Shown in pieces: positions 616 to 1,162 of a stretch of DNA of 1,761 bases. A program made the translations under genes and the position numbers. The first letter of the stretch is position 1. Each line of letters starts with the position of its first letter. Origin of the DNA: Escherichia coli. Its GTDB lineage: Bacteria > Pseudomonadota > Gammaproteobacteria > Enterobacterales > Enterobacteriaceae. Where the stretch lies: the NCBI RefSeq assembly GCF_003334315.1, contig NZ_QOWR01000113.1. One strand, given 5' to 3'. The notes under the pieces are model-generated. The model worked only from the letters and a program-made list of their open reading frames with translations. It ran no database searches and had not been told where the DNA came from.

Positions 616-616
616 C

Positions 617-622
617 AGGAGG
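617..622 (+). promoter_or_regulatory. Shine-Dalgarno sequence (AGGAGG) for the downstream lipoprotein gene
   Basis: aggagg at 617-622, 4 nt upstream of ATG 627, and immediately after the toxin-domain stop codon (tight coupling). Confidence 0.55.
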
Positions 623-626
623 AAAT

Positions 627-812
627 ATGAAAAAATATATATTTTTAGTTTTATTTTTATTGTGTGGTTGTTCTCCAGTGGACATAGAGCCAGCTAGACA
701 AGAAGTTAATATCTTTCGTGGTTTATATCAGACAGGGAAATACAGTGATATATATAAAATCACTTCAAGTGATTTTCAGACTGCCACATCTGAAAAAAAT
801 TTATCGACATAA
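627..812 (+). CDS. Small lipoprotein-like protein (61 aa as read), candidate immunity protein for the upstream toxin domain
   Basis: ATG at 627 with a strong SD. N-terminus MKKYIFLVLFLLCGCS has a basic n-region, a hydrophobic core and a lipobox-like LCGC. Very AT-rich, immediately downstream of the toxin domain. The ORF-track start at 591 is rejected (no SD, overlaps the toxin ORF). The stop TAA at 810-812 overlaps the next ATG. Confidence 0.55.
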   Translation: MKKYIFLVLFLLCGCSPVDIEPARQEVNIFRGLYQTGKYSDIYKITSSDFQTATSEKNLST

Positions 813-1021
813 TGAACGAAGCAAAAGAAAAAGATCTTGGGACTTATAAAAAATCAACCCTTAAAACTGAAAAAATCACTCGCGGATTATTTTCAAACGA
901 TGAAATTACATTGATATATTTCTCAGAATATTCAAAAAGAATTGTCCAAGAGGTTTTTGTGTTTAATGTTGAAGACAAAAAAGTAAAATTAAAAGGTTAT
1001 AGGTATGATTCGATTAATTAA
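812..1021 (+). CDS. Hypothetical Lys-rich 69-aa protein; possibly the C-terminal portion of the preceding lipoprotein gene, separated by a frameshift
   Basis: ATG 812-814 overlaps the upstream stop (TAATG). No independent SD. The same frame is open back to 794, inside an A7 tract (793-799). Composition matches the upstream ORF. Confidence 0.4.
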   Translation: MNEAKEKDLGTYKKSTLKTEKITRGLFSNDEITLIYFSEYSKRIVQEVFVFNVEDKKVKLKGYRYDSIN

Positions 1022-1162
1022 AATTTTTGATGATGACTTCAATTAGTAGAACATGTATTTTTCGATAAAAGCACCGATGACTTTTTCATGAAGTTCTACA
1101 GAGCGCGAGAAACAGATGGTTCTGCGAGTCAGACGTTTGATTCAGGTTCTCAGGGGCAGATT

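Follow-up and report, generated by a model that had tools for sequence, protein, structure and literature searches.

The AT-rich island at positions 616-1060 of the analysed Escherichia coli DNA is best read as the 3' half of an exchangeable RhsE toxin-tip/immunity cassette that is expected to be silenced by H-NS and is dead in this genome, and we put the probability of this reading at about 85%. Throughout, the window is the whole stretch of DNA that was analysed (1,761 nucleotides). Both partners of the module, the toxin tip and its immunity gene (dsORF-e4), are inactive here, because an IS1 element cuts the last 137 tip codons from the Rhs core and the dsORF is frameshifted.

We compared the window with 5426 complete E. 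coli genomes by megablast. The results showed that positions 205-1761 correspond to a single chromosomal site at 99.9% identity, and strain CP53 matches the window with 99.9% identity along 1557 bp. This site is annotated in the order ansP-yncG-yncH, vgrG, a 1402-aa 'RHS element core protein', small ORFs, ydcC and pptA; the ydcC gene there belongs to ISAs1/ISEc5, the 'H-repeat'. By this sequence match, the window is assigned to the E. coli/Shigella RhsE locus. Its features are as follows.

1-204, minus strand: left end of IS1, inserted in the RhsE C-terminal tip, with its terminal repeat at 182-204 (100% identical to IS1B over 1-206; 51.5% G+C).
205-615, plus strand: variable C-terminal tip of RhsE, last 137 codons, with the stop codon at 613-615 (the translation equals the end of the CP53 1402-aa protein).
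616-626, plus strand: spacer of 11 bases with a Shine-Dalgarno-like AGGAGG at 618-623 before the dsORF start codon (read from the sequence).
627-1021, plus strand: dsORF-e4, presumed immunity gene, a pseudogene comprising the ORFs 627-812 and 812-1021 (annotation of intact alleles; alignment).
793-799, plus strand: homopolymer of seven A (A7), eight (A8) in the intact gene; the frameshift site (alignment).
798-807, minus strand: exact H-NS high-affinity consensus TCGATAAATT (motif scan).
1010-1019, plus strand: copy of TCGATAAATT with one mismatch (motif scan).
1029-1162, minus strand: degenerate IS1-like right-end remnant, consisting of the terminal repeat and about 33 C-terminal InsB codons (PGAP, blastn, tblastn).
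1163-1177, plus strand: copy of the H-repeat left end, 15 nt (direct repeat with 1325-1339).
1178-1324, plus strand: 5' fragment of a group II intron, 147 nt, beginning GTGTG (Rfam RF01999; alignment with EDL933, K-12 and SCU-301).
1325-1761, plus strand: ISEc5/H-repeat (ISAs1 family), with the leader at 1325-1468 and the start of ydcC (ATG at 1469) (99.5% identity to K-12; annotation).

The IS1/tip junction was absent from the 5426 complete E. coli genomes, and no exact 35-mer match to it was found in GTDB representative genomes. A promoter-like site on the plus strand spans this junction at 191-219, with TTGGCA in the IS1 end, a 17-nt spacer, CATGAT in the tip and a TG upstream. Judged only by its match to the consensus, it is a possible hybrid promoter, created by IS1, that would read into the truncated tip and the dsORF. 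Position 465, within the tip coding region, is A in the window, whereas the seven E. coli loci compared with it all have C.

We measured the base composition of the island against a background of 445-bp windows from 200 kb taken at four places in E. coli CP53. The sequence-only reading had estimated, by eye, around 30% G+C and long A/T runs at 620-1060, and both estimates were borne out. Positions 616-1060 contain 28.1% G+C (71.9% A+T versus 48.8% in the host), these limits essentially match the lowest-scoring contiguous segment (610-1098, 28.2% G+C, at a 40% threshold), and the interval 630-1028 holds nine A/T-only runs of 8 or more. The island also holds 20 tracts of at least four A or four T, with the highest A/T-tract density of the window and a high TpA density. 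The background averaged 51.25% G+C (sd 5.4%), giving the island a z of -4.3, and 0.05% of the background windows were equally low; CP53 is thus no low-G+C host in which such a region would be unremarkable. Codon usage departed from the host in the same direction, with a GC3 of 22% in dsORF-e4 (GC1/2/3 of 34/28/22%) compared with 57.8 ± 7.3% in 111 long CP53 ORFs.

The flanks contain 51.5% (1-204, IS1 end), 42.8% (205-615, tip) and 49.0% (1061-1350) G+C. The claim that the island is poorer in G+C than its flanks is borne out, but the left neighbour of the island is the toxin tip and not IS1, and its GC3 of 23% assigns this tip to the same AT-rich cassette. The right side of the window is G+C-normal only unevenly, with 38.6% in the ydcC part and 25.4% at 1351-1468 in the ydcC leader, a segment that is as AT-rich as the island and conserved in K-12.

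The dsORF-e4 protein contains 17 Lys, 12 Ile, 9 Phe and 9 Tyr and is also rich in Asn. Encoded with typical E. coli codons, it would give 39.9% G+C, and the observed value is about 12 points lower, indicating that about half of the deficit stems from amino-acid composition and about half from the choice of A/T-ending codons. The AT-richness might instead reflect pseudogene decay under AT-biased mutation combined with an unusual amino-acid composition, and would then be uninformative on origin or regulation. The frameshift in this dsORF and the low G+C expected from the amino-acid composition alone are in keeping with such decay. However, the intact A8 allele of E. coli has 28.0% G+C and the intact orthologues in other genera have 29-31%, the remaining 12 points lie below what composition predicts, and the intact, presumably functional tip has the same GC3. 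Decay is largely refuted by these intact alleles, and we regard it as very improbable.

The reading of the island as half of a cassette is carried further by intact relatives, which also show where the unit begins and ends. In loci 99.9% identical to the window, the core of the 1402-aa RHS core protein ends in ...YITQDPIGLEGG...MDPLGL and is followed by the tip encoded at 205-615. The residues directly before the tip match NCBIfam RHS_core and Rhs_assc_core and include the DPxGL motif; in the window itself, the core has been removed by IS1. Across the intact locus, G+C is 63.7% in the core (GC3 76%), 41% in the tip (GC3 23%) and 28% in dsORF-e4 (GC3 22%). This fall of GC3 from 76% to 23% indicates that the AT-rich unit starts at the core/tip boundary and not at 616; it ends at the dsORF stop codon. 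G+C under-calls the cassette because the glycine/alanine-rich tip masks the AT bias at codon positions 1 and 2, and it is GC3, not G+C alone, that gives the true boundary.

Apart from the core motif, searches of Pfam, NCBIfam, PADLOC and PDB gave no match for the tip. From its sequence it is presumed to be an uncharacterised, glycine-rich toxin domain, possibly a membrane-active one. Several glycine-zipper-like segments were seen in it, as was an internal 22-nt direct repeat (280-301 and 361-382, 82% identical) encoding GHAGLGV and GHAGIGG.

We then aligned the island with intact alleles, which are annotated as 'RHS element protein dsORF-e4' (WP_000759875.1, 131 aa). The sole difference between the window and the intact gene was a single-base gap, one A missing at 793-799, giving A7 in place of A8. 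The sequence-only reading had spoken of 'immunity gene(s)' and of a 'second ORF'; by this alignment, the ORFs 627-812 and 812-1021 are one 131-codon gene broken by an A8 to A7 frameshift. That the island holds two separate small immunity genes could be argued from the TAATG stop/start at 810-814, by which the ORFs overlap, from PGAP, which calls two hypothetical proteins in A7 genomes, and from an in-silico study of EDL933, in which a 61-aa product (EDL933_2188), called a lipoprotein by SignalP, was taken as the RhsE immunity protein (PMC7216683). Against this, one added A joins the ORFs into a 131-aa protein that is conserved end to end in four genera, a single predicted NTF2-like domain has its helices and sheet spanning the break, and the second ORF would have no signal peptide. 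Two separate genes are scarcely credible on this evidence, and EDL933_2188 is the front half of the broken dsORF-e4.

With dsORF-e4 taken as one gene of the cassette, we surveyed its tract alleles. The gene is present in 1366 of the 5426 complete E. coli genomes, with an exact A8 tract in 837, an exact A7 tract in 496 and another form in 33. Carriers of the frameshifted A7 allele include O157:H7 EDL933 and O111:H8. A7 was found with two haplotypes of flanking sequence, one typified by CP53 and the window and the other by O157:H7/O111, and A8 was found with each of them too, indicating that the slip arose repeatedly or spread by recombination. Loss of one partner is uncoupled from loss of the other, since CP53, EDL933 and O111:H8, which also carry A7, have an Rhs gene annotated as intact, and several A8 genomes have a broken one. 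The pairing of an intact Rhs gene with a frameshifted dsORF, seen in many genomes, is awkward for an indispensable immunity factor, unless the toxin is undelivered.

As at phase-variable loci, the homopolymer lies within an ORF and differs in length between close relatives of otherwise identical haplotype. At 7-8 A, the tract is shorter than is usual at classical contingency loci. We consider it distinctly unlikely that the A8 tract is a slippage switch, or that A7 is partly rescued by transcriptional or translational slippage. If it were so, O157:H7-type lineages would still make some full-length immunity protein or would toggle its production, and the persistent AT-richness would both generate such tracts and keep the module under H-NS control.

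The sequence-only reading had also taken the island for cargo exchanged horizontally between Rhs-type loci, and comparisons between strains and genera agreed with it. The sequences of K-12 and CP53 agree at 92-99.9% identity across the Rhs core (core 92%) and from window position 1325 on, but between the core end and 1325 they are unrelated, K-12 having another tip together with ydcD and yncI. In Enterobacter bugandensis and Salmonella enterica subsp. salamae, the tip and dsORF directly follow full-length Rhs genes at other loci, with the same 11-nt spacing between tip and dsORF, and in Kluyvera intermedia they form an orphan pair behind another Rhs/immunity pair. Between E. coli and these genera, tips are 85-90% and dsORFs 82-83% identical, whereas the Rhs cores of Enterobacter and Salmonella are only 64-66% identical to that of E. 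coli. At the nucleotide level, the Enterobacter and Salmonella modules are homologous only as far as 1020-1021, the dsORF stop codon. These results show that the tip and dsORF travel together as an exchangeable cassette. In the Salmonella salamae Rhs array (locus L014, 487-855), we also observed an upstream paralogue of the tip, 32% identical, beside a different small ORF (881-1345); by its sequence, this paralogue suggests a wider family of related tips.

The same comparisons bear on whether the DNA was imported recently, from a non-enteric donor of low G+C, and has not yet been ameliorated. G+C and codon use that are both far from the host, together with the patchy presence of the gene (1366 of 5426 genomes), fit such an import. 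However, homologues with a named source organism all come from Enterobacteriaceae, and in four genera the copies have diverged at 30-64% of their fourfold-degenerate sites with GC3 still at 22-29% throughout, indicating that the low-GC state is old and stable within the enterics. We consider a recent import unlikely, though less so than the other alternatives weighed here. In the other genera, the G+C of the dsORF gene likewise stays at 29-31%.

For the second partner of the RhsE cassette, we examined the dsORF-e4 protein by sequence, profile and structure comparison. Its N-terminus, MKKYIFLVLFLLCGC, has a hydrophobic core followed by L-C-G-C, in which a Cys at -2 is unusual for a lipobox; Cys13-Gly14-Cys15 is invariant in 17 homologues. 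These features suggest a lipoprotein-like protein that would reside in the periplasm. The AlphaFold model, built on a shallow alignment of 17 sequences, had a pLDDT of 85 with helices at 21-71 and four strands at 74-129, and Foldseek matched it to the NTF2-like N-terminal domain of PBP2a (E = 2e-4) and to the NTF2-like proteins 3fka, 4ovm and 2r4i. The protein is therefore predicted to adopt an NTF2-like fold, with N-terminal helices on an antiparallel sheet.

The product of dsORF-e4 is presumed to be the RhsE immunity protein, and the genomic linkage of tip and dsORF in four genera supports this role. Pfam gave no immunity family, only weak matches to DUF3887, DUF4019 and DUF5851; the NCBIfam HMMs gave no match, the PADLOC match was insignificant, and a PDB sequence search returned nothing meaningful. 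Our literature search found no experiment on the tip/dsORF-e4 pair or on RhsE immunity. The NTF2-fold immunity proteins of polymorphic toxin systems are the Pfam Imm-NTF2 families. Like them, dsORF-e4 is a small protein encoded directly after a toxin tip, with a predicted cone-like alpha+beta fold; it has no sequence match to these families, however, and carries a lipoprotein-type signal sequence.

We next analysed the 3' side of the island. The IS1-like remnant starts at about 1029, 8 nt past the dsORF stop codon, and positions 1029-1060 are its terminal repeat region and not a native 3' UTR. PGAP annotates 1043-1141 (minus strand) as a partial IS1-family transposase. The remnant is 64% identical to the IS1 end (blastn, E = 6e-7) and 55% identical to InsB residues 129-161 over 33 residues (tblastn, E = 6e-10), and it has an internal stop. 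It was found in every retrieved E. coli copy of the cassette and was absent from the Enterobacter and Salmonella copies. As the sequence-only reading had noted, no terminator follows the gene: a terminator scan found none at 1022-1060, and the RNA of 1005-1110 folds more weakly than shuffled sequences (z = +1.83). This is because the IS1-like end begins so soon after the stop codon. Rfam detected no structured RNA within 616-1060 at E <= 1.

Beyond the remnant, a perfect 15-nt direct repeat, CAGGGAAAGATCATC, flanks the intron fragment at 1163-1177 and 1325-1339. When the region was compared with SCU-301 and K-12, this 15-mer proved to be the H-repeat left end, indicating that the intron piece is preceded by another H-repeat end, which is truncated; in EDL933 and O111, this repeat region contains an additional 14-nt duplication. 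The left end of ISEc5/H-repeat was placed by the same comparison, and its terminal inverted repeats were not found by the repeat search. The Rfam model RF01999 (group-II-D1D4-2) matched 1247-1351 on the plus strand with 63.5 bits, against a gathering score of 36; EDL933 has a fuller group II intron copy (90.1 bits), and K-12 and SCU-301 are without the fragment. The intron-fragment observation covers 1178-1351 of the window and 6509-6626 of locus L015. The spacer at 1163-1324 is G+C-normal (53%), and the H-repeat leader at 1325-1468 contains 28.5% G+C. Since the H-repeat begins at 1325 with this AT-rich leader, the G+C-normal 'H-repeat flank' described earlier does exist as a stretch of normal composition, but it consists of insertion-sequence and intron debris, namely the IS1-like remnant and the group II intron, and the H-repeat leader itself is as AT-rich as the island.

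We then assessed the island as a candidate target of H-NS. At one mismatch or fewer, two TCGATAAATT sites were found against 0.27 expected, a number that 6 of 200 shuffled sequences reached. The exact site overlaps K-F-I-D codons and is missing from the Salmonella and Kluyvera copies, indicating that it may be incidental. Predicted curvature, which the sequence-only reading had proposed as a check, gave no support, as no phased A-tracts occur in the island and its AA/TT periodogram at 9.5-12 bp was no stronger than in shuffles, 57% of which reached the same level. The island thus resembles H-NS xenogeneic silencing targets in its A+T content, which at 72% across some 450 bp exceeds that of the genome by more than 20 points, in its high TpA density and in its exact high-affinity motif, but it differs from them in having no intrinsic-curvature signal.

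The closest reference is K-12, where RhsE-ydcD occupies the same chromosomal site (yncH ... ydcC-pptA) with a 92% identical core and ydcD, the positional counterpart at RhsE, has 27.3% G+C. The ydcD region is listed as a 'promoter island' bound by H-NS in all three ChIP data sets cited (PMC3661553). The K-12 tip and downstream ORF are unrelated in sequence to this cassette, and these H-NS data belong to the K-12 allele only; our literature search found no direct H-NS data for the present allele. By analogy, and from its sequence, H-NS silencing of this allele is a plausible and well-founded expectation. The idea that this island is itself a 'promoter island' was rejected, as 616-1060 contained one sigma-70-like site only, with no enrichment (7 sites in the whole window versus 5.5 expected).

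Taken as the 3' half of the RhsE cassette, the island can be explained as follows. RhsE is a polymorphic toxin locus that is linked to vgrG and is of the type VI secretion kind; in its intact relatives a G+C-rich Rhs core (64%) is fused to a variable C-terminal tip, with dsORF-e4 eleven bases on. The product of dsORF-e4, a small NTF2-fold lipoprotein, would presumably neutralise the tip in the periplasm. Tip and dsORF switch Rhs cores together through C-terminal displacement, by recombination where the end of the core is conserved, and stay low in G+C (GC3 22-29%) in every host examined, and such AT-rich DNA is expected to be coated and silenced by H-NS, as is K-12 ydcD. In this genome, IS1 has severed the tip from the core, an A8 to A7 slip has broken the immunity gene, and an earlier IS1-like insertion 8 nt past the stop codon removed the native 3' end.

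The pattern agrees with what has been described for Rhs elements, in which a core rich in G+C is followed by an A+T-rich core extension and then by a downstream region poor in G+C, and which undergo C-terminal displacement (Jackson et al. 2009, PMC2935791); the composite composition is also described in PMC7259588. Like this locus, the composite Rhs elements of E. coli show a sharp G+C drop from core to tip and a small ORF immediately after the tip; the two are exchanged together between strains and loci, and IS/H-repeat debris comes after them. Nothing essential sets this copy apart from typical Rhs elements, except that it is doubly inactivated, by IS1 in the tip and by the dsORF frameshift, and that what lies beyond it is an IS1-like remnant with a group II intron fragment instead of dissociated tips.

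As this pattern has been described since Hill and co-workers, the composition of the island was already known. The compositional island seen by eye is the known exchangeable tip/immunity module of an Rhs element, which has little consequence beyond annotation, and the only mildly new points are that A8/A7 variation in the immunity gene is common and that this gene has been mis-annotated. For annotation, the consequence is that a published in-silico study took a 61-aa fragment of a frameshifted gene as the immunity protein (PMC7216683), and that in about 36% of the E. coli carriers, including O157:H7 EDL933, the frameshift has made the presumed immunity gene a pseudogene, which is annotated as a pair of hypothetical proteins.
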